NCBI GenBank assembly: GCA_001873435.1
Contig: MNZB01000003.1
Span: 206,031-270,030 of the forward strand
Direction: 5' to 3'
Source: Candidatus Pacebacteria bacterium CG2_30_36_39
GTDB lineage: Bacteria; Patescibacteriota; Microgenomatia; UBA1400; PJMF01
DNA length: 64,000 nucleotides
The notes beneath the pieces are model-generated. The model did no database searches, was not told the DNA's origin, and worked only from the letters and a program-made list of their open reading frames with translations. The position numbers were made by a program, and so were the translations under genes. Shown here in pieces: positions 2,638 to 50,314 of the stretch (its first letter is position 1; each line of letters starts with the position of its first letter).

Positions 2638-2678
2638 CTGTAAACGTGAAAACAGGGTGGCTTTTGGCCACCCTGTTT
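2638..2678. terminator. 41-bp hairpin repeat, copy 2; intrinsic terminator downstream of minus gene 2746..3288
   Basis: Identical to 1837-1877. The stem-loop is followed by a T-tract on both strands (ttttgggg on plus). Confidence 0.6.
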
Positions 2679-2745
2679 TGGGGTATTACACTTGCACGGA
2701 GGAGAGAGGATCCAGCGCTATTCGATTGTAGCCGAGAGCCGCAGG

Positions 2746-3288
2746 TTACGCGCTGAGTTTTGAAGTCAGGGCGCGGACCTTGCGAGCCGAGGAGGTTGCC
2801 GAGCGGGACTGGCGGATGGTCTGGTTCACGAACGTCATGGAGACGGTCGCTTCCTTCTCAGCCTGTTCCATCCACTTGTCAACCTGATCGGGACTGATCT
2901 TGGCGAGTGTCAAGACCGTCTCGAACGCTTCTTGCTGTTCGCCGGCGAGGGCTTCAGCGCGTTCAGCGCGGGTCTTCATCGCGGGATATTTGTCCGCCAC
3001 GGCTTTGGCGCCGGCGAGAGCCTTGTTCAGGCGCTCGATTTCCTTGTTCGCGGTGCTGAGTTGGGACTCGAGACTGCGGACTTCGGAAATGTGGGCAAGG
3101 TGCTTCGGGAAGGAAGCGGCGATGCGACCGAATGAATCGGCATCGTGCAGGTCGGTCAGAGCGCCGAAGGCGGTCTGCAGATTGCTGGCTTCCTGGCGGG
3201 CTGCCAGGTTGGCGCGCATGGAGGCAAAGTTATCGGACAAGCCGAAAACGCCGGACGCGGGGACGATGGGTTCAAAAGTTTTGGTCAT
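2746..3288 (-). CDS. Hypothetical Ala-rich coiled-coil protein (unit B of the GC-rich module)
   Basis: 180-aa ORF at ~60% GC. An AGGAG SD lies 7 nt upstream of the ATG (revcomp of 3289-3310). It has its own promoter and terminator. The composition resembles phage scaffold or phasin-like proteins, but there is no diagnostic motif. Confidence 0.5.
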   Translation of the reverse strand: MTKTFEPIVPASGVFGLSDNFASMRANLAARQEASNLQTAFGALTDLHDADSFGRIAASFPKHLAHISEVRSLESQLSTANKEIERLNKALAGAKAVADKYPAMKTRAERAEALAGEQQEAFETVLTLAKISPDQVDKWMEQAEKEATVSMTFVNQTIRQSRSATSSARKVRALTSKLSA

Positions 3289-3349
3289 GGGTAGTACTCC
3301 TTGAGTTTTTTTTGGCTATTTAAAGCCGAATATGCAGTTTCACCTTTTT

Positions 3350-8166: not shown

Positions 8167-8886
8167 CTATTTCATTTTTAAAAATTCAAGTCGAATGTCT
8201 TCTGGAAATTTTTCAATGGTATAGCGCAGCATTGTTCTTGGCATTTTAGTAGCATTGAGATAAAGAAAGTCTTTGAGAATTTGTTCGTTTCTTTTACCTA
8301 CTTCTCTCAACATCCAACCACTGGCTTTGTGGATTAAATCATGTCGGTCATTTAATACTTGTTTACCAATCTTTAGAATTTGTTTGAAATCATTGTTTTT
8401 AATAAATGGGAAGCAGGCAAGAATAGAAATTCTTCTTTCCCATAAATTATTTGAGCTAATTAAATTAAATATTTCTTTTTGTCTTTCAGGATTATTTAAA
8501 ATGTAATCCCCGATTATGTTTGGTGTTGTAACATCAACTAAATCCCAATTATTAATGTATTTACGTTGAGAAAAATATAAATTAAAGATTATTCCTTTTT
8601 GTTTTTCAGTCGCTTTTTTATATGCATAGACCATAGATAAAAGGCTAGTCAGTCTAATTTCATGGATTGGACTGGCAATGAGATTTTTTAAATCTGGCAA
8701 ATTAGTTAAAATCTTTGGAGCAAATTTTTGGGCGACTTTTCTTTGTTGTGGCACAGTAATTCCCCAAAAAATATCGCCTTCAGCATACTGACCTTTTCCA
8801 GTTTTAAAAAATCTCTGCAAAACTTTTGCTTTTTCTAGATTTTTAAGCTTTTCGAGGTCTTTAATGAGAGAGCTAGTCATTGTCAT
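8167..8886 (-). CDS. DNA alkylation repair protein (AlkD/AlkC-like HEAT-repeat family)
   Basis: 239-aa all-helical protein. Sequence features resemble the DNA_alkylation family (e.g. FFKTGKGQYAEGDIFWGI, WDLVD). Confidence 0.5.
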   Translation of the reverse strand: MTMTSSLIKDLEKLKNLEKAKVLQRFFKTGKGQYAEGDIFWGITVPQQRKVAQKFAPKILTNLPDLKNLIASPIHEIRLTSLLSMVYAYKKATEKQKGIIFNLYFSQRKYINNWDLVDVTTPNIIGDYILNNPERQKEIFNLISSNNLWERRISILACFPFIKNNDFKQILKIGKQVLNDRHDLIHKASGWMLREVGKRNEQILKDFLYLNATKMPRTMLRYTIEKFPEDIRLEFLKMK

Positions 8887-30111: not shown

Positions 30112-30430
30112 AAAGCGTACAACCCGTAAGCCGGATTCTGTTTTAGGCGAGATTTGTCTAATGCCGAAAGCTTGATGACCCGGCTTTGTTGCCAAAGCAC
30201 CAGGAGTAGGTCTAATAAGGTCAAGGTCGTTCGTTGCAGCCGGGAGGATTGCCCCATTCCCGAAGGAATAGATCCAGTAGCTTGATCGTTTCACTCGGCG
30301 CCACCCGATTCGTCACTGTTGCTCTAACTGTCAAAGCCTCCATTTTCATGGAGCACCGTCTACTCTGCTGTCCGGACTTTCCTCCCCTTTTGCATAAAGC
30401 AAAAGAGGCCGCGCCCGGTTGTACGCAACC
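30112..30430 (-). ncRNA. rnpB: RNase P RNA (bacterial type A)
   Basis: The minus strand contains the P4 5' strand AGGAAAGTCCGGAC (revcomp of ~30374-30387) and the conserved 3' region ACAGAATCCGGCTTACGGGTTGTACGC. The P1 stem pairs GCGTACAACCGGG with CGGGTTGTACGC. A TATAAT -10 lies just upstream (revcomp of ~30432-30440). Local GC is elevated. Not in the ORF track. Confidence 0.85.
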
Positions 30431-31890: not shown

Positions 31891-33062
31891 ACGATTTTTG
31901 GTCGGTTGTTTAAATTGTCTTTATTAATGATTTGATCGAGTATTTCCCAACGCTTTTTTCTAATTGGGTATGGGATCTCGTCGTGATATAGGCGATGTGC
32001 TGCTGTTCCAGGTCTTGGGGAATACATAGCGACAAAGCCTACTTTCCAGTTCATTTTTTTAGCAAATTCTACTGTTTCATTAAATTCTTCATCTGTTTCT
32101 CCAGGGAAACCTACGATAATATCTGTGCCTAATACTATTTCTGGGTCTCCTGCTCTTAGTTTTTCAACTACTTTAGCATAGTCTGCGGTGGTATAACCTC
32201 GATTCATTCTATCCAAAACAGTGTTGCTTCCAGATTGAACTGGTAGATGGACATAGCGATCAATTTTTTTGTTTTTAACTATCTCTGCCACTAGTTCATC
32301 ATGGAAGTCCCAAGGGTTGCTGCTTAAAAAGCGAATTATTTTTATTTCTGGGAAAGCTGAAATTTTTTGTAATAATTCCACAAAAGGTGGAGTTCCCTCA
32401 GGTTTTAGGTATTGGGATTGGTTATTTGGAATCATTTCTCTAGTGAATTTTTCATCGCTCATTAACATTTTTCTAAGGCTAATGCCCATTTTTTCCAGTC
32501 CCCAGGAATTGACGTTTTGGCCAAGTAAAGTAATTTCGCTATAGCCTTTTTTTACTAAATCTTCAACTTCTATAATGATTTCCTCCATGCTTCTGGATTG
32601 TTCTCTGCCTCTAGAATATGGGACTATGCAGTAGGTACAAAAAGAGTTGCAGCCAGCAGAAATTGGTACCCAAGCATGTTTTTTATCTCTACGAACAGCG
32701 CTTTGATTGAAGCCAACCTCATTGACAGGCAAAATTTCATCAATGGCTGTGACCATTTCCATGATTTTGTTTTTGCCATGATGTAGCATGCAGCCAGTAA
32801 AGATTATTTTTGGTTTTGGTAAATTGCGATCAGCATATGACTTAACTACTTTAAGGACAAAAGCTCTTGCTCTGTCCTCGGCGCTTTTGCGGATGGCACA
32901 GGTATTTACCACTAGTTCATCAGTGTTATCCCAAGATTTGGCTGGTTCATATCCTCTGGCCTCGTAATCACCAGCGATTCTTTCTGAATCACTTTTGTTT
33001 GATTGGCAGCCAAAGGTGTGAATGAAATATGTTTTTTTCATAATAAATAGGACTTGAGGCAC
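31887..33062 (-). CDS. miaB: tRNA-2-methylthio-N6-dimethylallyladenosine synthase (radical SAM methylthiotransferase)
   Basis: 391 aa. UPF0004 N-domain with TFGCQSNKSD, radical SAM CxxxCxxC (CTYCIVP) and a TRAM-like C-terminus. Confidence 0.85.
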   Translation of the reverse strand: MPQVLFIMKKTYFIHTFGCQSNKSDSERIAGDYEARGYEPAKSWDNTDELVVNTCAIRKSAEDRARAFVLKVVKSYADRNLPKPKIIFTGCMLHHGKNKIMEMVTAIDEILPVNEVGFNQSAVRRDKKHAWVPISAGCNSFCTYCIVPYSRGREQSRSMEEIIIEVEDLVKKGYSEITLLGQNVNSWGLEKMGISLRKMLMSDEKFTREMIPNNQSQYLKPEGTPPFVELLQKISAFPEIKIIRFLSSNPWDFHDELVAEIVKNKKIDRYVHLPVQSGSNTVLDRMNRGYTTADYAKVVEKLRAGDPEIVLGTDIIVGFPGETDEEFNETVEFAKKMNWKVGFVAMYSPRPGTAAHRLYHDEIPYPIRKKRWEILDQIINKDNLNNRPKIV

Positions 33063-33130
33063 GAGCGGGATTCGAACCCGCGAACGAAGGTTTTGCAGAC
33101 CTCGCCATTAGGCCACTCTGGTATCGTGCC
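33057..33130 (-). tRNA. tRNA-Cys (anticodon GCA)
   Basis: The minus strand reads GGCACGA...TCGTGCC acceptor with a U73 discriminator, anticodon loop CUGCAAA and T-loop GGTTCGAATCC. Not in the ORF track. Confidence 0.85.
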
Positions 33131-33205: not shown

Positions 33206-34141
33206 TTAGGCTGTTTGTTGTTTTGCCTGTAGTTCACCTAAGATTTGTTGGGTTTTGACTAAGTTTTCTGCTACGTGCGGCAGTATTTCTTGGGCGGCTG
33301 CAGTGTAATAGCCGTAGGTTGTTGGTTGGTTTTCTTTGGTTCTAGCGCTTTCTCTTTTTAGGAAGCCAGTTAAGATTGTTTCTTGGCTTTTATAGAATTT
33401 TATCCATTCTTCATCGGTGTATGGTTCTTCATGACTTGGTAAGATTCCTAGTTCTCTGCAGATTTTTATTGCTCCATTTAGATAAGTATTCCATTCGCTA
33501 CCCATGCCACATAAATCGGCATCGGCCATGATTTTTTTTAATTTTAAAATACCAATGCTGTCCTTGGTATTTAAATTTGCATCCCAGGTTGTAACTTCTT
33601 CTCCCCCACCAAGAGTAGGAACAATTGTATTTTTTCTTTTGCCTAGTAAGTTGTTTATTTTTTGGGCGATTGCTCCATTGGTATCCATATACCATTGTGT
33701 TGCCAAGATTGTTTCTATTACTTTGCGGATTTGTATTGGAGGAAAATTTAATTCTGCCATTCTTTTCATTACAGTCGTCGCAGTTTTAATTTCATCAATG
33801 CCAGATTCTTGGTTGCTGTCTATATCGTGCCAAGCAACAGCAATTCTTAGAAGAATGGTATCTTCTTTGGGTAATCCCATTTTTTGTGCAATTTTTTCTG
33901 CTACTGCCATTACGGTATTGATGTGTTCTGGATTATGATAGATTCTTGGTTCTTTACCTTTTGTTCCATATTTTTCATTCATTAAAAAATATGCTTCAGC
34001 AATGAGTTGTTCTGCTTTTGCTTCTAGTTCTTTGTCTTTGAGGGAAGTTTTTTCTGGGATGTTCCAGAATTGTGTATTTAGTTCATGTGACAAGTCTTCT
34101 TGCATCAAAATAATGATACGTTGACTTGAGGATAAGCACAA
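33206..34141 (-). CDS. HD-domain phosphohydrolase-like protein
   Basis: 311 aa. H...HD spacing (YHNPEH, then AVAWHDID). The start may be M13 (about 34105). Confidence 0.35.
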   Translation of the reverse strand: MCLSSSQRIIILMQEDLSHELNTQFWNIPEKTSLKDKELEAKAEQLIAEAYFLMNEKYGTKGKEPRIYHNPEHINTVMAVAEKIAQKMGLPKEDTILLRIAVAWHDIDSNQESGIDEIKTATTVMKRMAELNFPPIQIRKVIETILATQWYMDTNGAIAQKINNLLGKRKNTIVPTLGGGEEVTTWDANLNTKDSIGILKLKKIMADADLCGMGSEWNTYLNGAIKICRELGILPSHEEPYTDEEWIKFYKSQETILTGFLKRESARTKENQPTTYGYYTAAAQEILPHVAENLVKTQQILGELQAKQQTA

Positions 34142-34153
34142 GCTAGCAGATTC

Positions 34154-34930
34154 TTATTCTGTTTCTGGTATTTCAGCTAAAACTGGAATTAGAATTGAGG
34201 CATAGAGGTTTAGGGCTTCATTGTCTGCAATCAGTGTTTCTTGATCGTTAAATATTTCGTCACTTGCTAATGATTCTCTGGCTACAACAATTATTGGAAT
34301 TGTTGGTACTGAGATTTGTTTGTCTAGTAATGCTTTGGAGATGAGTTTTTTTAGAGAGTTAATGGTTGCTCCAGAGCTGTAGACGTCATCGACAAAGGCA
34401 ATATTTTTTCCTTGTTGAATTAGGTTGATTATTTTTTCTAGAGTTTCTTCGTTAATAGCAAAGAATTTTGATGGATCGTTTGGTCCTAGGGTGATTGGTC
34501 TACATTCTTCTATCCAATATGTTTCTCCGTTGGGGCTAGCTAGTTTTACTACTTCGTCTTTGGTGTAGATGTGTTTTTGTCCGTTTTCTTGAGTTGATCC
34601 GCCAAGAATAATAATTGGTTGATTTTCAAGTTCGGCTTTAATATTTGCTTCTTGGATCATTTGTTCTGATTTTGAAGATGGTGCAGTGATGATTAAATCA
34701 ATTTTTAGTTTCTTTAAGAATTCAGCCAAAACATTGGCTCCTGCGATGCCTAGTTCTGGAGATCTTGGGTCTAGAATGGCAATGTATTCTGGGTGTTCTG
34801 TGGTTCCAACATTAATGATTGGAAGGTGAAATTTTTGGTTGTCTAAGGTTATTTCTAAGGAAAAAGTATCGTTACTTTCTTTTTTAATATTTTTAGCAGT
34901 GTAGATTTCGATCTCTTTTGAATGACTCAT
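34154..34930 (-). CDS. Phosphoribosyltransferase-domain protein with an N-terminal domain of unknown function
   Basis: 258 aa. The C-terminus has the type I PRTase PRPP-binding motif IAFVDDVYSSGATI. Confidence 0.5.
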   Translation of the reverse strand: MSHSKEIEIYTAKNIKKESNDTFSLEITLDNQKFHLPIINVGTTEHPEYIAILDPRSPELGIAGANVLAEFLKKLKIDLIITAPSSKSEQMIQEANIKAELENQPIIILGGSTQENGQKHIYTKDEVVKLASPNGETYWIEECRPITLGPNDPSKFFAINEETLEKIINLIQQGKNIAFVDDVYSSGATINSLKKLISKALLDKQISVPTIPIIVVARESLASDEIFNDQETLIADNEALNLYASILIPVLAEIPETE

Positions 34931-35870: not shown

Positions 35871-36182
35871 ATGAGTCATTTATGGAGAAGTATCATGTTT
35901 AACCATCTTAATATTCTATTTGCTATCCTTTGGGCAATTTCGCAAACCCTGTTGGGCGTTGCTATTGCTTTTGCCATTGCCAAGCTTCGCAAGAACTGGT
36001 ATGGCGCTGGTCGCTGGGGCGCTGGTCTTTCGACCGCGATGGCTTTGTTGCTGTTTGCTCATGTTTATGAAAGCAATCCAGTCACTTTCGCTGTGGGAAT
36101 TTTCATTGGCTTAGTTATCTCTGCCATTGTTGATGCCCTCTTTTCCCCAAAGACTGAGCAGGATGTAGATGATATGTATTAA
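35871..36182 (+). CDS. Small three-TM membrane protein with an acidic C-terminus (holin-like topology; function unknown)
   Basis: 103-aa ORF. GC (~47%) is higher than the flanks. Followed by a stem-loop at 36192-36224 and a canonical terminator at 36304-36330. Confidence 0.45.
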   Translation: MSHLWRSIMFNHLNILFAILWAISQTLLGVAIAFAIAKLRKNWYGAGRWGAGLSTAMALLLFAHVYESNPVTFAVGIFIGLVISAIVDALFSPKTEQDVDDMY

Positions 36183-38091: not shown

Positions 38092-38179
38092 AACTCACAA
38101 GATTTTAATGATTTAATGAAAAATTAGCAATCTTAATAAAAAATAATTTTTTTGAAAACTGGTGAGCAACCGTTTGGCT

Positions 38180-38345
38180 GGTTCAAACTTTTTATCTGAT
38201 GTTGTCCATGCGTTGGAAGACTTTAAAGCCTTCATCGCGAGCATGGGCGAGGCATTTTTACCAACCCCTGCACTTGCATATTAGCCCACCCACGGTGTGG
38301 CCTACACCCCCTGCGTGGGAATTACCCTTAAAGGGGCGACATATA
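38180..38345. other. GC-rich (~55%) structured intergenic element; candidate small ncRNA or recombination site
   Basis: Nested inverted repeats: CCATGC...GCATGG enclosing GGAAGACTTTAAAGCCTTC, and CCCACG-GTGTGGCCTACACC-CCCTG-CGTGGG. No ORF. Lies between the GT39 gene start and the OLD-like gene stop, at the proposed island edge. Confidence 0.25.
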
Positions 38346-38412: not shown

Positions 38413-40311
38413 TTACTCAGAAATTGGTTCTGTCGGTGATTCTGTTTGAACAGGTGGCGAAATTTCTGTCATTATTTCCTCAACTACTTTTGCTAATTTC
38501 TCGAGATTCTTTTTTGAAGTGTTATCTAATTCATTCAATGTAATAGTACCGTCCTCCACTGCGTTAAAGAAACGAACTGCAAGTAACCCCTTTGATTCTT
38601 TCTTTGTCGGGTGTTTCATATACGTAGAATTCTCTTTAGAAATATCCTTGATATCAATCTGAGCAATCAATTTGGCAAAATTGTCTTTGCTGAAAACATC
38701 TTCTATGCCTTTGCAACCAGGAATTACACGTAAGATTTTGTCTAGTCTTTCTTTTAGTACGTCTCCCGGATATACCTCTTTTCGAACTTTTTCTAGAGTT
38801 TTTCTCCCACTGTCTTCATCATCAACTAATACGCCATATGTAATGCCCCAACCAAATAAAAGGCGCGCAAGTTGAGGTATTGTTGTTGTGCCATTGGCTG
38901 GAAGCAAATGAACATTTTTAATATTTTTGAGCTTGAAAAGTGCTTGTAGATAATAGCAAACACTTACTTCTTCAACAATTATATTGTTCGTTTTATCAAT
39001 AACATTTTGATTAGCAAAACTGCTACCCATGCAATCAAAAATTGGAGTCAATGTATCAGATGATAATGCCCCTAATTGATGTGCACTGAAAACACGCGTG
39101 TTGGCCAAACTATAGTCGTCTCCTTCAATGGTTTCTCTTTGAGCCGCAATTATCCTGTAAAGTCTAGTTAGGTCAAGCAAGTGGTGAGTATGTGTTGTAT
39201 AGATGACTTGAATATTTTTTTTAAGTGTTTCAAAAACTCTTAGTACATCTTCTTGTGCTTTAGCGTGAAGACTACCAGCAGGCTCATCAATTAGGAGTAT
39301 TAAATCTTTTTTAACACCATCGCTGTCCTCACTTTGTTTTTCACTTCTAACTGAACAAGCTTTTAATTGCAAATAAAACGACAAGAACCAGAGCAATCCT
39401 TTGCTTCTTTGTCTTGGGGAGAACTGCACCCCATTCTCAGCTATCCAAAAACTCAAATATGATTCTCCAACAAGCTCTGGTTCATCTTTACCATGTCTTT
39501 GGAAAACAACCTGAATTTCTAGCTCGTCACGATTGCCAATTTTTTGTGACCAAAATTGCCTAAAGTCAGCTGTGAACGAGCGGTATTTTTTTCCTAATTG
39601 GTTGTTTCTCAATCTATCACTAAGTAGTTCAAGCTCATCAACTTTAATGTCTAAAATTTCCAATAGATTCAAAACACCATGTAGTCCTTCAGTTTTGGGA
39701 TTTTTTTTGATGACATCTTTAATGTCAATTTTATCTGGAAGTAAGCTTTCAAAATCTACAAATTTTTGAAATTCAGGTAGAGATGAAACAACTCGGTCAG
39801 TAAACTCTTTAGCCGTTAGTTGTTTCACTGTTGGTTCTGGAGGAGCTGTTGGAGTCTCTGTTTTAGTTTCTCCCACAGTTTGTTTTTCAGCTGGTTGCGG
39901 TTCTGATTCTGGAGGAGCTATTGGAGCAAAAAGTGTTTCTAAATCAAGAAAGTTGATTTTTACTTCGTTCTTTGTCAGTGTCGACCAATTTCTAGTTAAT
40001 GAAATCCTGTTTTCTGCTTCTTTAATTTTTGCCTTCAATCCTCTTGGCAGTTCTCCCTCTTCAAAATTTTCATCAAACCAAGCTTTTTGAATCCTAAAAA
40101 CACAAGTAATCTCTGGAAAGCCGTCTTCTCGTAAAGCATCTGGATTAAGTTTTCCCGTTGAAAATGTTTCAAGCGCCTCGAGTATCGAAGTTTTGCCAGA
40201 CTCATTTTGTCCGATAATTGCTGAAATATTGTCTGCTGGAAAATTAAAAAAACCAGTATTCTGAATCGACTTAAAATTTGAAATTTTGCATGAAATCAAC
40301 TGAGTTCTCAT
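38413..40311 (-). CDS. OLD-family (overcoming lysogenization defect) ABC-type ATPase + TOPRIM nuclease; candidate anti-phage defence protein. A fused PARIS AriAB-like assignment is an alternative.
   Basis: 632 aa. Walker A GQNESGKTS. ABC signature/Q-loop region RSKGLLWFLSF. Walker B/D-loop LILLIDEPAGSLH. H-loop YTTH. C-terminal TOPRIM-like Glu (IIVEEVSV) and DxD (VLVDDEDSG). A Pro/Thr/Glu-rich low-complexity insert (APIAPPESEPQPAEKQTVGETKTETPTAPPEPT) sits inside the ATPase domain. No UvrD-like helicase partner is adjacent. Confidence 0.6.
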   Translation of the reverse strand: MRTQLISCKISNFKSIQNTGFFNFPADNISAIIGQNESGKTSILEALETFSTGKLNPDALREDGFPEITCVFRIQKAWFDENFEEGELPRGLKAKIKEAENRISLTRNWSTLTKNEVKINFLDLETLFAPIAPPESEPQPAEKQTVGETKTETPTAPPEPTVKQLTAKEFTDRVVSSLPEFQKFVDFESLLPDKIDIKDVIKKNPKTEGLHGVLNLLEILDIKVDELELLSDRLRNNQLGKKYRSFTADFRQFWSQKIGNRDELEIQVVFQRHGKDEPELVGESYLSFWIAENGVQFSPRQRSKGLLWFLSFYLQLKACSVRSEKQSEDSDGVKKDLILLIDEPAGSLHAKAQEDVLRVFETLKKNIQVIYTTHTHHLLDLTRLYRIIAAQRETIEGDDYSLANTRVFSAHQLGALSSDTLTPIFDCMGSSFANQNVIDKTNNIIVEEVSVCYYLQALFKLKNIKNVHLLPANGTTTIPQLARLLFGWGITYGVLVDDEDSGRKTLEKVRKEVYPGDVLKERLDKILRVIPGCKGIEDVFSKDNFAKLIAQIDIKDISKENSTYMKHPTKKESKGLLAVRFFNAVEDGTITLNELDNTSKKNLEKLAKVVEEIMTEISPPVQTESPTEPISE

Positions 40312-41252: not shown

Positions 41253-41906
41253 ATGGATAATTATATTGACCAGTGGGAAAAATCCCAGCTGGATGACTAT
41301 GAGCTTAGGAGTTCTCAAGAGGCACTTTCTTTAGCAGCCAAGCAGAACCAAGACCTTGCAAACCAGAGTCGGGGACAGTTTGATATTTTTTATGACAAGA
41401 TTCTTCTATATTCAGCTGGTGCTTTTTCTTTTAGTGTTGCCCTGGTAGGGCTAGTCGTTGGCGACAGAATCAACGCTCTTGCAAAAGCAGGCTTTCTATA
41501 TCCAAATATCTATTGGCTCTACTTAAGCCTCGGTGGTTATCTCATCACATGTGCTATGGTTCTATTATCTAGACGTTTCGATGCTTTGTACCTTGGTCAC
41601 TTCGGCATGGCCAACTACTGCAAACGAAAGAGAGAACAACAGGAAGCTATACATCAGAAACTCCAAAATAGCCAAAGCAATGAAATTCTGGTGACAAAAG
41701 GGGGAACTCGAGAATCTGAAATAGAGATTTGTAAAAGTAACATCCAAAAGTTGAGAAATGCGGAAAATAAGAATGCAAACGCTAGGGATAGAGAACAATT
41801 CTTAAAAAGGCTTTGTCACCAGATTGCTGAATTAATAGTGGTCGTGGCGACTATACTTTTACTATTTTTTACCATTCAGCTAACCCAAGCAATGATTTGG
41901 GGTTGA
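41253..41906 (+). CDS. Hypothetical 2-TM membrane protein with N- and C-terminal helical cytoplasmic segments
   Basis: 217 aa. Two central TM helices (LLYSAGAFSFSVALVGLVV, WLYLSLGGYLITCAMVLL) and a third C-terminal hydrophobic segment. Coiled-coil basic region. Confidence 0.35.
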   Translation: MDNYIDQWEKSQLDDYELRSSQEALSLAAKQNQDLANQSRGQFDIFYDKILLYSAGAFSFSVALVGLVVGDRINALAKAGFLYPNIYWLYLSLGGYLITCAMVLLSRRFDALYLGHFGMANYCKRKREQQEAIHQKLQNSQSNEILVTKGGTRESEIEICKSNIQKLRNAENKNANARDREQFLKRLCHQIAELIVVVATILLLFFTIQLTQAMIWG

Positions 41907-41909
41907 TGT

Positions 41910-42428
41910 TTACTCTGGAATAACTACTTTTAATTCTTTAATTGCTTTACTAAGGGCAGGTTTTAGCCTATGTGAAATACTTGTGAGCTGTCCACCATGA
42001 TTCCTTTGTATTTCTTGATTATGTGTGTAAAGGTTTATTTCTTCGTTGTATAGAGCAACTTCGTTATAAAGACTAATCAAGGATTTTTGTTCTTCAGGTT
42101 TCCACCAATATAAATACATTTTCGTTGATTCCCATGCCGAATCCGGAAATCTCCTATTCCTTGGTAGGTCCTTAACCATATCACTCATCTGCATAATCTC
42201 AGCGTGAATCCAATTCTTGGCTTGTTCAACTCTTTCCATTTTTTCTCTTTCGTCTTTAGCTCTCTCTTTTTTTGCCCTTTCTAACTCTGTTTTTTGAGAC
42301 TGTTCTACCGTGGCATCAATGCTTTTCCTTGTAGCCCAGATAGTTGCAAGGGCACCTGCAGCAGAGCCAATTACACCACTTCCTAATGAGAGAAACACTT
42401 GAAACCAGTCAATCATATTAATGTTCAT
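41910..42428 (-). CDS. Hypothetical TM + coiled-coil protein; last gene of the hydrolase-NTase operon
   Basis: 172 aa. N-terminal TM (WFQVFLSLGSGVIGSAAGALATIWA) then a K/E-rich coiled coil. Start overlaps the upstream gene's stop by 4 nt. Confidence 0.4.
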   Translation of the reverse strand: MNINMIDWFQVFLSLGSGVIGSAAGALATIWATRKSIDATVEQSQKTELERAKKERAKDEREKMERVEQAKNWIHAEIMQMSDMVKDLPRNRRFPDSAWESTKMYLYWWKPEEQKSLISLYNEVALYNEEINLYTHNQEIQRNHGGQLTSISHRLKPALSKAIKELKVVIPE

Positions 42429-43489
42429 TTATATTCCTCCGGCAACTCAATCCCAAACCTCTCACAAAGTGCTTTAACATCATGGAAGTCGCTCGCTCTC
42501 AGCTTATATCCTGTATGAAATTTGACCATCCACTCTGGAGAAATACACTTCACCTCTATATTGTCAACACAACCTTTGCCGCTAAGTGCATCTTTATGAT
42601 AGGAATTGCCGTTTTCTACTGGGCCATAAATACCATTGCCATTTTCATCTAAATTAATAACATGAAAATCAACGAATCGAGCATTTTTGTCACCCATGAT
42701 AAAATTCCAGTCGGTTTCATCACCTCTTTTTACTCGATTAAAACCTCTTACTTTAAGTAGATTAACTACGGAAGTCACGTCCTTTTGTTGAAGAACTAAA
42801 TCAAGGTCACCATGAGCTCTAGTTTGCTTCTCCAATAGAGCATCAACGCCCCAGCCACCATCAAGCCAAAATTCAATATTTTTATCTTTGAATTCTTTTA
42901 TAAGTTCCAACACATACTCCTCTGTCATTGCATCACCCGCGATATGATGCAAAAGAAAAGGAAACTGTCTATATGCTTCGCCAAATGTGCCAACGCTAAA
43001 ATGCTTTTGTCCTGGCAAAACAATTAAATCGCCACCAATTTTTTCATATAGGTATTCAGCGTGCTCGAGAGGGCAATAGGGGTCATTATCTGAGTGGATG
43101 AAGTACCATGTCAGAGACTTTGAATTAATTTTCTTAAAGTCAAATGGTGTGATGAAAAGGTCTTTAAGAGAATCCCATCCCAAATCATCTTTGAATGAAC
43201 CCACTAAGTAGCAGGCTTTGACAACAACACCCTCTGGCAATGCTTGCAAAAGACCGAGAGTAGCTACAGCCCCTGATGAGTGACCAATGATTGTGGTCTC
43301 CTCATCAAACTTCCAGTTTTTGTTGCTCAAAATGAATTCGTTATATCTCTGAATATTGGGTTTATCAGCTCCAGGCAAGTTAGGTGTCCAAACCTCGTAA
43401 CCTCGTGACTTTAATTCAGTCTCAAGCCAAGGAAACCAATTTTCTTGGGAATTGCCGTTTGTGCCGTGGAGGATGAGCGCTTTTTTCAT
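42425..43489 (-). CDS. Fusion protein: N-terminal alpha/beta serine hydrolase (RBBP9/YdeN-like) + C-terminal ANT(2'')/Lnu-type nucleotidyltransferase
   Basis: 354 aa. N-terminal ILHGTNGNSQENWFPWL with nucleophile elbow GHSSG. The C-terminal half aligns to ANT(2'')-Ia: WLDGGWGVDALLEKQTRAHGDLDL vs WIGGGWAIDARLGRVTRKHDDIDL. Its tail VKCISPEWMVKFH compares with VRCNSWEAIIWDY. Confidence 0.7.
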   Translation of the reverse strand: MKKALILHGTNGNSQENWFPWLETELKSRGYEVWTPNLPGADKPNIQRYNEFILSNKNWKFDEETTIIGHSSGAVATLGLLQALPEGVVVKACYLVGSFKDDLGWDSLKDLFITPFDFKKINSKSLTWYFIHSDNDPYCPLEHAEYLYEKIGGDLIVLPGQKHFSVGTFGEAYRQFPFLLHHIAGDAMTEEYVLELIKEFKDKNIEFWLDGGWGVDALLEKQTRAHGDLDLVLQQKDVTSVVNLLKVRGFNRVKRGDETDWNFIMGDKNARFVDFHVINLDENGNGIYGPVENGNSYHKDALSGKGCVDNIEVKCISPEWMVKFHTGYKLRASDFHDVKALCERFGIELPEEYK

Positions 43490-48702: not shown

Positions 48703-50253
48703 ATGAAAAATAAAAAAGAAACAATCAATATAAATAGAGCCTGTCTATATCTAAGGTTTAGCGATGATAAGCAAATTGGTGGAACATCAATTGCAGTTCA
48801 AAACAAATCATGTCGTGACTACTGCGCAATACATGAATGGAAAGTAGTAATAGTTGAGAAAAACGAAGCAGTCACAGCTAAAACCTCAAATATCCGTAGA
48901 GTTGCAGAATTACTAGAATTTTGCAAAAGAAATAAGGGTAAATTTGAGGTACTCGTGGTCTTCAAGCTTAATAGATTTGCTCGAGACCAAGCAATGCACC
49001 ATTATCTGAGGTCAGAACTTCTAAAATTAGGTATTTTATTACGTTCTGCCACTGAACCAATAGATGAAACTCCAATGGGTAAGTTAACTGAAGGAATATT
49101 AGCTGCTTTAGCTGAGTTTGATAATGGTGTTAAGTCTGAAATGGTTAAAGCAGCTCTTTGGCGCAGAGTTGAGGAAGGCATGTGGCCATGGCATCCGCCA
49201 CTTGGCTATATGTCAATTCGTCAAAAGGATGAGAAAGTGAAAGCTCACGTACCAGACCCAGGGCTTGAGCAAGCAATTATTGACCTTTTCACCAGTTTCT
49301 CAACGGGCACTGTCTCTCAATTCGATTTGTCAAAAGAGTATGCAGCCAAGAAATTAACAGACTATAAAGGGAGAACAATTAAATTTTCACCCCAGTCGGT
49401 CAATAATATTCTTAACAACCGCTACTATATGGGAATCTTGGTTCATGAAGATGGCAGGCATATCCAAGGAAAGCATAAAGCTATTATTAAGCCAAGTTTG
49501 TTTGAGAAATGCCAGTATATCTTGCACAAAAAGTCTAATGGCACCGCTGGAAGTCAACGACTGCACGATAACCCAGAATTTCCCTTGAAACCAACCTTGC
49601 GCTGTGCAAGTTGCAAGGAGTTATTGACGGCTCAGTTTTCCAACTCTGCAAGAGGTACTAAGCATCCTCATTACTTTTGCAGAAATAATAAGTGCAATTT
49701 ATTTCGTAAAACGTACAAGCGGTCAAAATTAGAGAATGAGTTTGGCATCTATTTGCGACAAATTAAACCAACTAAAGAGTTTGTAAAGCGGTTCCAGGAG
49801 AGATTCCTGGACCGCTACAAAACCCGTGAGCTAGACCTAAAAGGTGAGTATTTGCGAAAGCTTGGAGATGTGCAAAAACTCGAGAAAGACCTTAAGTTTG
49901 TTATTGACCAAGGTAAGAAGGGAGTTTTGAAAAATGACACTTTCAAGAATGCTATTGAGGAAGTTGAATCAAAGCTTAGTTTAGCAAAAATGTCACTGCG
50001 AGAAACTCATGGAGAAGAGATTGACGTTCAGCTTTTGATGGCTTATGCGGAGAGCTTTATTCAAACCATTGAAAAAGTCTGGTATGACGCTCCATTTGAG
50101 ATTAAGAAGAAAATTCAGAATTTTGTTCTGCCTGGTGGCGTTTACTTAACTAAGACCAGAGAAGGCTATTTTTTTTCGAACCCTCAATTAGGTGGATTGT
50201 TCCAACTAATTCAGGATTTTGGTGCTGATGATTCAACTGTTGTGACCCCATAG
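48703..50253 (+). CDS. Large serine recombinase (integrase)
   Basis: 516 aa. Resolvase catalytic domain with the Ser nucleophile in YLRFSDDKQ. Recombinase domain. Zinc-ribbon Cys cluster (CASCKELL...HYFCRNNKCN). C-terminal coiled coil. The last 11 nt overlap the 3' end of tRNA-Glu. Confidence 0.8.
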   Translation: MKNKKETININRACLYLRFSDDKQIGGTSIAVQNKSCRDYCAIHEWKVVIVEKNEAVTAKTSNIRRVAELLEFCKRNKGKFEVLVVFKLNRFARDQAMHHYLRSELLKLGILLRSATEPIDETPMGKLTEGILAALAEFDNGVKSEMVKAALWRRVEEGMWPWHPPLGYMSIRQKDEKVKAHVPDPGLEQAIIDLFTSFSTGTVSQFDLSKEYAAKKLTDYKGRTIKFSPQSVNNILNNRYYMGILVHEDGRHIQGKHKAIIKPSLFEKCQYILHKKSNGTAGSQRLHDNPEFPLKPTLRCASCKELLTAQFSNSARGTKHPHYFCRNNKCNLFRKTYKRSKLENEFGIYLRQIKPTKEFVKRFQERFLDRYKTRELDLKGEYLRKLGDVQKLEKDLKFVIDQGKKGVLKNDTFKNAIEEVESKLSLAKMSLRETHGEEIDVQLLMAYAESFIQTIEKVWYDAPFEIKKKIQNFVLPGGVYLTKTREGYFFSNPQLGGLFQLIQDFGADDSTVVTP

Positions 50254-50314
50254 GGAGTCGAACCCTACTTACCAGGATGAAAACCTGGTGTCCTAACCGA
50301 TAGACGATGGGGCC
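50243..50314 (-). tRNA. tRNA-Glu (anticodon UUC)
   Basis: The minus strand reads GGCCCCA...TGGGGTC acceptor, anticodon stem-loop CCAGG-TTTTCAT-CCTGG and T-loop GGTTCGACTCC. The 3' end overlaps the recombinase stop region. Not in the ORF track. Confidence 0.8.

Follow-up and report, generated by a model that had tools for sequence, protein, structure and literature searches.

The OLD family of ATPase-Toprim proteins is divided into classes by gene neighborhood and by insertions in the Toprim domain (PMC10568477, PMC12796447). Within class 1, the Thermus scotoductus enzyme (Ts OLD) and its Vibrio cholerae counterpart (Vc OLD) nick or degrade DNA (PMC7049728, PMC12392090), and the phage P2 protein amputates tRNA anticodon stems (PMC12445682). 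Class 1 proteins described as defending alone are Vc OLD (PMC12392090), P2 OLD (PMC12445682) and Escherichia coli YbjD (PMC13261556). In Ts OLD, K34 is the catalytic lysine, mutagenesis shows that E276, H283, H310, E377, D431 and D433 are needed for ATPase or nuclease activity, and a four-helix dimerization domain is inserted between strands beta8 and beta9 (PMC7049728). Here we describe a member of this family from Candidatus Pacebacteria bacterium CG2_30_36_39, a groundwater metagenome-assembled genome (MAG) of the candidate phyla radiation (CPR). The gene lies in a 64,000-nucleotide stretch of contig MNZB01000003.1, referred to throughout as the window, and its product carries the NCBI label "hypothetical" or "AAA family ATPase" (Table 1). 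We consider it fairly probable that this is an intact stand-alone OLD of the class 1 type, carried on a serine-recombinase element at a tRNA-Glu gene, whose function is most likely to protect the host or the element from phages or competing mobile elements.

Pfam recognized the ATPase alone above threshold (AAA_15 at 1.5e-20 and AAA_21 at 1.5e-13), and a full-length family profile was needed to match PDB sequences. The best match of that profile was Ts OLD (6P74, E 6e-14), and the second of the aligned segments runs unbroken from Walker B to a point past Toprim strand 4. In the family-profile alignment, Ts OLD residues E276, H283 and H310 pair with D342, H349 and H374 of the window protein, and the metal A ligands E377, D431 and D433 pair with E447, D497 and E499; the window Walker A aligns to the Ts OLD P-loop, with K40 opposite K34. 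Comparison of the family with single sequences by hhalign gave alignments from Walker B into Toprim for both P2 Old (80% probability, E 1.4e-5) and YbjD (76%, E 2.3e-5), in which IIVEE pairs with LLVEGKTE of P2, LVDDED with LADCD of P2 and LVDGDE of YbjD, and the SK574 motif with SSKP of YbjD; the QRS motif pairs with a QRS of P2 Old. An AlphaFold2 model of the protein has a mean predicted local distance difference test score (pLDDT) of 85 and a predicted template modeling score of 0.76, and in a Foldseek search of the PDB it matched Ts OLD first (6P74, 1.1e-14) and GajA next (1.6e-13 to 1e-12), both of them full-length ATPase-Toprim proteins, with the ATPase-only PtuA proteins ranking below them. 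Modeled alone, the C-terminal domain (pLDDT about 93) has four beta-alpha units, and its matches of low root-mean-square deviation are Toprim folds only, namely 2i5r (a small Toprim protein of B. stearothermophilus), T7 primase and RNase M5, at probabilities of 0.94-0.95 and 3.8-4.1 Å over about 95-100 columns; their E-values of about 0.08 are not significant alone, and the search with this domain by itself gave no significant E-value (all at least 0.06). In the ATPase half, four predicted helices (197-202, 210-220, 224-227 and 232-251) lie between strands 194-196 and 264-272, a position that would correspond to that of the Ts OLD dimerization domain, of which they are a candidate counterpart. 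The protein is an OLD-family ATPase-Toprim in which both domains have conserved catalytic residues. A preliminary description of this gene, made from its sequence, had proposed profile and structure comparisons with P2 Old, GajA and AriA/AriB, and these have now put Ts OLD and GajA at the top, with P2 Old alignable and AriA weaker.

Conservation was assessed in an alignment of the window protein with 37 homologs of 34-67% identity. Across these 38 sequences the invariant positions are G34, Q35, N36, E37, G39 and K40 of Walker A; Q301, R302, S303 and G305 of a signature-like motif; D342 of Walker B, where E343 is nearly so; H349 of the D-loop; and T373 and H374 of the H-loop. In the C-terminal half, N443, E447, E448, S450, G487, W488, D497, E537 and K574 are invariant and D498 and D538 nearly invariant. 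A predicted beta-strand leads straight into the Toprim-like pair E447/E448, and the third strand into D497-D498-E499-D500. Thus the Walker A and B motifs, signature region, H-loop and Toprim-like Glu and DxD that the preliminary description had picked out by eye are all borne out as invariant or nearly so, and judged by this invariance the catalytic motifs are real and under selection. Metal B ligands can be proposed as well: E448 and S450 follow E447, and E537/D538 sit after Toprim strand 4, which makes them candidate counterparts of the Ts OLD cluster D381, S478 and E480, the hidden Markov model (HMM) alignment itself stopping at Ts OLD residue 474, short of S478 and E480.

The class of the protein was judged from its neighborhoods and from the Toprim fold. 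Genes within five positions of each homolog were clustered for 80 loci from named genomes and for further metagenome contigs; here the 43 loci of a short class, with proteins of about 600 aa, amount to about 35 independent contexts, and among these 43 loci no neighbor family occurs in more than three, apart from duplicate contigs. In the window, the same-strand neighbors are a 240-aa protein without a family match and, on the downstream side, a 573-aa multi-pass membrane protein, and no helicase, reverse transcriptase or Toprim domain was found among the neighbors, in agreement with the earlier remark that no UvrD/PcrA helicase adjoins the gene. In the model, Toprim strands 3 and 4 are separated by about 30 residues (helices 500-513 and 520-526) with no large helical insertion, and the extra helices come after strand 4, outside the fold proper. 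Because there is no conserved neighbor family and no large insertion between strands 3 and 4, the window protein fits class 1, the stand-alone OLDs; a caveat to that status is a convergent micro-open reading frame (micro-ORF) found in five of eight close-clade loci and taken up below. The preliminary description had left the choice between a class 1 OLD and a fused protein like PARIS, and it is the first half of that choice that stands, given the match of both domains to Ts OLD and the lack of a conserved partner. Searches for relatives in mobile genomes returned none in 50,697 phage records, P2 among them, by tblastn, none above 30% identity on plasmids and none above 32% identity on IMG/VR contigs. 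On these comparisons the clade is a divergent branch of the known OLD family. The best plasmid relative, on Lactococcus lactis plasmid pLLN8-2 (L098, 50625-52433; 26% identity, 89% coverage), is a lone gene for a 602-aa "AAA family ATPase" with a small serine recombinase gene directly upstream of it.

Between strand 115-120 and helix 167-177 of the model, ahead of the four-helix insertion, lies the proline-rich linker that the preliminary description had singled out as an atypical insertion inside the ATPase domain and as a possible regulatory or sensor element. The linker is real, at about residues 128-165, and is predicted to be disordered (pLDDT 43-52, and below 50 for residues 138-153). 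A low-complexity segment of 27-96 residues (median about 50) occupies this site in every homolog, and P, E, S, T, A and Q make up 31-82% of it; some clades have a Pro-rich version and others one rich in Glu/Lys or in Ala, and no sequence is conserved. In the DNA, a 23-nt repeat (39832-39854 and 39904-39926, spaced 72 nt) bears the mark of slippage or duplication. Since the segment is present and hypervariable in all homologs, carries a slippage-type repeat in the window and is replaced by about 228 residues in a longer class of relatives, the linker is a tether, flexible and quick to evolve, at the variable arm-insertion site of the family and not a specific sensor; it is neither atypical nor part of the ATPase core. 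The longer class, of about 775 aa and from Bacteroidota (L040-L095; for example L044, 9120-12325, and L043, 9183-14919), has its insertion of about 228 aa at the linker site and lacks the Toprim catalytic residues, VEE being replaced by VKD and DDED by NFGN. A SpoIIE/PP2C phosphatase gene precedes the gene of this class in 46 of 48 loci, a SiaC-type phosphoprotein gene is often next, and the synteny is conserved, so that this class looks like a partner-switch signaling module and not a nuclease.

The OLD gene is accessory cargo of a serine-recombinase element inserted at tRNA-Glu. In the window, the gene for a large serine recombinase overlaps the 3' end of the tRNA-Glu(UUC) gene, and the same arrangement recurs at L005, where an OLD homolog of 66% identity is accompanied by a recombinase of 47% identity, in the same relative orientation and again overlapping tRNA-Glu(UUC), and where no gene besides these two is shared with the window. 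Past tRNA-Glu, L116, a locus without the island, has L19 and CTP synthase genes with 79% and 71% identity to their window counterparts, and this synteny fixes the right border; the parallel at L005 and the synteny of the backbone thus uphold the right edge of the island, for which the preliminary description had named a serine integrase and a tRNA as limits. From 38 to 50 kb the GC fraction is 0.36-0.40, and to the left of this it is 0.32-0.34. No convincing att-type direct repeats flanking the island were found, as is expected of serine recombinases. Elsewhere a recombinase adjoins tRNA-Ser (L007) or follows 16 nt after the OLD homolog (L101). An XRE-type helix-turn-helix gene is common to L005, L102, L101, L106 and L016, and L005 has several more genes in common with L102, one of them for an AAA_25 ATPase; to judge from this gene content, the five loci are one family of integrative elements. 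Among the closest homologs (59-78% identity), the only flanking genes in common are those of mobile elements.

Table 1. Positions, in window coordinates, of the OLD gene, the parts of its product and the surrounding features
Feature	Coordinates	Strand	Details
OLD-family ATPase-Toprim gene, stand-alone (class 1-type)	38413..40311	-	Single ORF, 632 aa, ATG start
Walker A/P-loop G34-QNESGK40-T	40189..40212	-	Conserved in alignment; aligns to Ts OLD P-loop
Pro/Thr/Glu-rich disordered linker, about aa 128-165	39817..39930	-	pLDDT 43-52; hypervariable; DNA repeat D1
Four-helix insertion in ATPase domain, aa 197-251, candidate dimerization domain	39559..39723	-	Model
Signature-like QRSKG aa 301-305, Walker B D342-E343, D-loop His H349	39265..39411	-	Alignment
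H-loop T373-H374	39190..39195	-	Invariant; aligns to Ts OLD H310
Toprim nuclease domain aa 440-545: E447/E448, D497-D498-E499, E537-D538	38677..38994	-	Model and alignments
C-terminal helical region aa 546-617, with invariant K574	38461..38676	-	Predicted helices; alignment
Unannotated 40-codon ORF MSNRLAGSNFLSDVVHALEDFKAFIASMGEAFLPTPALAY, convergent with OLD gene; probable hotspot anchor, possible partner	38162..38284	+
Large serine recombinase of island, 516 aa	48703..50253	+	Pfam Resolvase 2.2e-22 and Recombinase
tRNA-Glu(UUC), integration target and right border	50242..50314	-	ARAGORN, Rfam
tRNA-Cys	33056-33130

Several homologs stand among defense genes. At L016 (5140-11908), a homolog of 78% identity comes immediately after a type III Mod/Res pair that has the same orientation, and at L007 (4052-8458) the homolog is found within a type II restriction-modification cassette, in the order methyltransferase, BsaWI-like endonuclease, OLD, methyltransferase. 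Both layouts recall restriction-linked anticodon nucleases such as PrrC. At L014 the homolog is near Eco57I-type and XhoI-type genes, and at L103 (2463-6807; also L104 and L105) a homolog of 48% identity is followed on the same strand by MazG-like and Schlafen group 3-type helicase genes, with a transposase adjoining; these three genes may form a defense cluster. The commonest families within two genes of short-class homologs are DNA methylases and ResIII subunits, each accounting for 5 of 149 neighbors. We infer enzymatic activity, substrate, trigger and defense phenotype from family precedent and context. In the mechanism we propose, the helical insertion would bring the ABC heads together, and the dimerized heads, by binding and hydrolyzing ATP, would gate a two-metal nuclease in the Toprim domain, which would nick or degrade invading DNA in the manner of Ts OLD and Vc OLD, or sever tRNA anticodon stems in the manner of P2 OLD. 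Either the invader would be blocked or the infection would be abortive, and the beneficiary may be the element and not the cell, as with P2 old.

Several observations weigh against this interpretation. The case for defense is one of guilt by association and family precedent, and in the window no restriction-modification system or other recognized defense system is directly adjacent to the gene. On the C-terminal half, the OLD-type Toprim model PF20469 scores 14.2 bits (E 0.068), short of its cut-off of 23.2, and a profile of that half alone matched no PDB sequence at E up to 10. In the PADLOC comparison that had been suggested for this gene, the AriA, AbiLi, GajA and Old models all gave partial matches, with neither AriA nor Old aligned at full length: AriA scored 80 bits on the N-terminal part, and the best stretch of the Old model covered residues 5-54 only. 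The gene would probably be missed by the defense finders now in use. On the left, no border of the island was recognized, and we found no evidence that tRNA-Cys marks that edge, so that the bounded island sketched earlier is supported on its right side. Finally, there are OLD-family proteins with nondefense roles, such as Cran1 (PMC12796447).

Of the alternatives, the one that fares best would make the OLD protein half of a two-component system, with a convergently encoded partner. The 320-bp spacer downstream of the OLD gene holds a GC-rich block (38190-38345), to which the DNA just after the homologs in L006 and L016 is about 75% identical. We rejected the idea that this block is a structured RNA, such as a retron-like noncoding RNA (ncRNA), a tmRNA or a tRNA-like molecule, because Rfam gave no match at E up to 1, ARAGORN gave none, folding was weak (minimum free energy z-score -2.5) and a small conserved ORF occupies the opposite strand. 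The variable sites of this micro-ORF are distributed 10/7/20 over the three codon positions, its GTG start is conserved and its stop is TAG or TAA, a substitution pattern characteristic of coding sequence. Copies were found at L006 (8038-8160), L016 (11987-12109), L102 (5988-6089), L005 (about 8563-8680), L100 (131-253) and L116 (6001-6201), with sizes of 33-40 codons; those of L102 and L005 are more divergent and have a 7-codon in-frame deletion. The micro-ORF is convergent with the OLD gene and 52-128 nt past its stop codon in the window, L006, L016 and L102, and the L005 copy is one gene further out, so that it accompanies the OLD gene in five of the eight independent close-clade loci. An HMM found no other copy among 34,777 ORF segments. 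The 5.8-billion-sequence protein database yielded six unnamed clusters, one of them labeled Candidatus Pacebacteria MAG, and the micro-ORF is restricted to Pacebacteria-type genomes in these six clusters; a metagenome scan added one locus only. A Shine-Dalgarno check of the micro-ORF was uninformative, since most genes in this genome lack such a sequence. In most of the genes inspected, a TATAAT-like box precedes the start codon by about 6-10 nt instead (for example at 41253, 11281, 31417 and 20395), which suggests that leaderless mRNAs are frequent in this genome.

On this two-component alternative, the 40-aa acidic, helix-like microprotein would be a labile inhibitor or antitoxin of the OLD protein, or else the convergent transcription would be regulatory. 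The recurrence beside OLD genes, the coding-type substitutions with conserved start and stop and an in-frame indel of 7 codons, and the lack of copies elsewhere among the ORF segments all speak for it. However, at L100 and L116 the micro-ORF occurs without an OLD gene and is followed by an EamA transporter gene and then by other defense cargo, an AbiU2-type HEPN gene at L100 and an ABC-3C system (DUF2326, MC6/7 and CTD10) at L116; the close homologs at L101, L103 and L106 and all distant homologs have no detectable copy; and the restriction to Pacebacteria-type genomes fits a lineage-specific backbone or hotspot gene. A 43-aa convergent ORF at L106 resembles the micro-ORF by eye, scores nothing with the HMM and was not counted as a copy. 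We therefore regard a partnership as unlikely. Because the micro-ORF also flanks the AbiU2 and ABC-3C cargo, it more likely anchors a variable defense hotspot than serves as a partner of OLD. The two ideas could be combined in a hotspot of Pacebacteria-type CPR genomes whose cargo is swapped (OLD nuclease, AbiU2 HEPN or ABC-3C) and whose microprotein or convergent transcript acts as a shared regulator, or as an antitoxin-like brake on whichever effector lies opposite; we consider this unlikely, but if it were true, the "class 1" OLD would actually be a two-part system.

Two further alternatives, both improbable, keep the protein single and change what it does. In the first it would act in genome maintenance, as a repair ATPase like RecF, SbcC or Rad50 or as a chromatin or cell-cycle nickase like Cran1. 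The N terminus does match RecF, Rad50 and SMC head models, Cran1 shows that housekeeping roles are possible for OLD proteins (PMC12796447), and the 775-aa relatives from Bacteroidota are syntenic and do not look defensive. Yet the RecF match reaches only 36.3 bits against a cut-off of 172 and the Rad50 match 22 bits against 700, both confined to the P-loop region, and a Toprim domain is present, so that a housekeeping RecF/SbcC-like ATPase without Toprim, which the preliminary description had named as the finding that would overturn its proposal, was rejected, as was a Rad50 identity. The short class, moreover, has a patchy taxonomic distribution and a different neighborhood in almost every genome, even the closest homologs share nothing beyond mobile-element genes at their flanks, and Cran1-type genes sit in a conserved operon, which the window gene does not. 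In the second alternative, to which we give similarly little credence, function would be driven by the ATPase, with Toprim dispensable or noncatalytic. This is the situation described for E. coli YbjD, in which Toprim is reported to be dispensable and the ATPase essential for the anti-phage phenotypes (PMC13261556), and the 775-aa class has lost its Toprim catalytic residues. Within the short class, by contrast, E447, E448 and D497 never vary, and D498, E537/D538 and K574 vary little or not at all, at 34-67% identity, which indicates selection for catalysis. The last alternative, a fused PARIS-like AriA-AriB system in which the ATPase would sense phage anti-restriction proteins and the Toprim part would cleave tRNA, can draw on the AriA model as the best single PADLOC match (7e-23), on AriA chains among the PDB sequence matches (2e-5) and on the two homologs inside or directly behind restriction-modification systems, a plausible setting for a guard of restriction, but is very improbable, as the AriA model matches residues 7-253 only (profile positions 5-202 of 373), the PDB sequence match is confined to the Walker B region (332-378), the top 50 fold matches contain no AriA or AriB entry while Ts OLD and GajA rank well above AriA, and for the Toprim half the matches are to the OLD-type model and to the Toprim domains of Ts OLD, P2 Old and YbjD, with no further Toprim-type family among the Pfam matches at E up to 1.

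Other features of the window deserve a brief record. The island contains a LOOT RNA motif (Rfam RF03000; 45382-45497, plus strand; 77 bits against a gathering threshold of 46.4) between metabolic genes and the recombinase-proximal ORFs without assigned function, and a minus-strand gene (42425-43489) for an alpha/beta serine hydrolase fused to a nucleotidyltransferase domain of the aminoglycoside-2''-adenylyltransferase type. Beside tRNA-Cys, a pair of minus-strand genes (33206-34141 and 34154-34930) encodes a protein with a weak HD-domain match (E 0.0065) and a phosphoribosyltransferase with weak matches to PRTase-CE, ShosT and the retron III-A phosphoribosyltransferase; the pair may be another small conflict system. 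In a genome of about 35% GC, stretches of at least 55% GC occur in the window at 2651-3300, 30221-30330 and 35931-36060, the others being mostly tRNAs and the LOOT RNA.

CPR bacteria (Patescibacteria) have tiny genomes, and their immunity is thought to consist mostly of restriction-modification (PMC12455944). A divergent stand-alone OLD with intact catalytic residues that moves between CPR genomes on tRNA-targeting serine-recombinase islands extends a known family and changes no concept, and its interest lies additionally in the CPR host, the partial matches to defense finders and the adjoining hotspot anchored by a micro-ORF. Because PADLOC and Pfam models match this clade only in part, defense censuses of these lineages probably undercount it. 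Class 1 is the least understood of the OLD classes, and a clade with hundreds of metagenomic members and an invariant active site should aid the comparison of substrates, DNA nicking against tRNA cutting.

With several described systems, the similarity of the window protein lies in the ATPase part. The ATPase half resembles AriA of PARIS (AriA/AriB, class 4 OLD; 7e-23) and AbiLi of AbiL (AbiLi/AbiLii; 6e-20), but unlike PARIS and AbiL the window protein has ATPase and Toprim in one polypeptide, its Toprim is of the OLD type and there is no conserved second gene. The ATPase head is likewise similar in fold to those of the retron-associated OLD (class 3, Eco8) and PtuA, but there is no reverse transcriptase, ncRNA or PtuB HNH gene nearby. 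Gabija GajA (class 2 OLD) has the same two domains and is the second-best fold match (8U7I, 8X5I and 8SM3; E about 1e-13 to 1e-12), and the PADLOC GajA model PDLC00067 aligns to residues 324-616, across Toprim. Unlike in Gabija, a GajB/UvrD-type helicase gene is neither adjacent in the window nor conserved in the 43 short-class loci, and we rejected a Gabija identity, the downstream features being the micro-ORF and the multi-pass membrane protein and not a GajB-type helicase.

Toward the class 1 OLDs, similarity is found at the profile level only; in the fold alignment, 13% of residues are identical between the window protein and Ts OLD. Walker B has a canonical Asp (D342) where Ts OLD has Glu, and the clade differs from known class 1 OLDs in its invariant QRSxG signature-like motif, in a disordered low-complexity linker of 27-96 aa ahead of the helical insertion, in a helical region of about 80 aa after Toprim with the invariant K574, and in its CPR host. 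The architecture is nevertheless that of the class 1 proteins Ts OLD (6P74), P2 Old, Vc OLD and YbjD, with an N-terminal ABC ATPase bearing a small helical insertion, followed by Toprim at the C terminus, and the D-loop histidine (H349, Ts OLD H283), the H-loop histidine and the Toprim Glu and DxD agree with Ts OLD residue for residue. Like the class 1 OLDs, it is encoded by a lone gene in variable neighborhoods, and like P2 old, that gene is borne on a mobile element, near the element's end.

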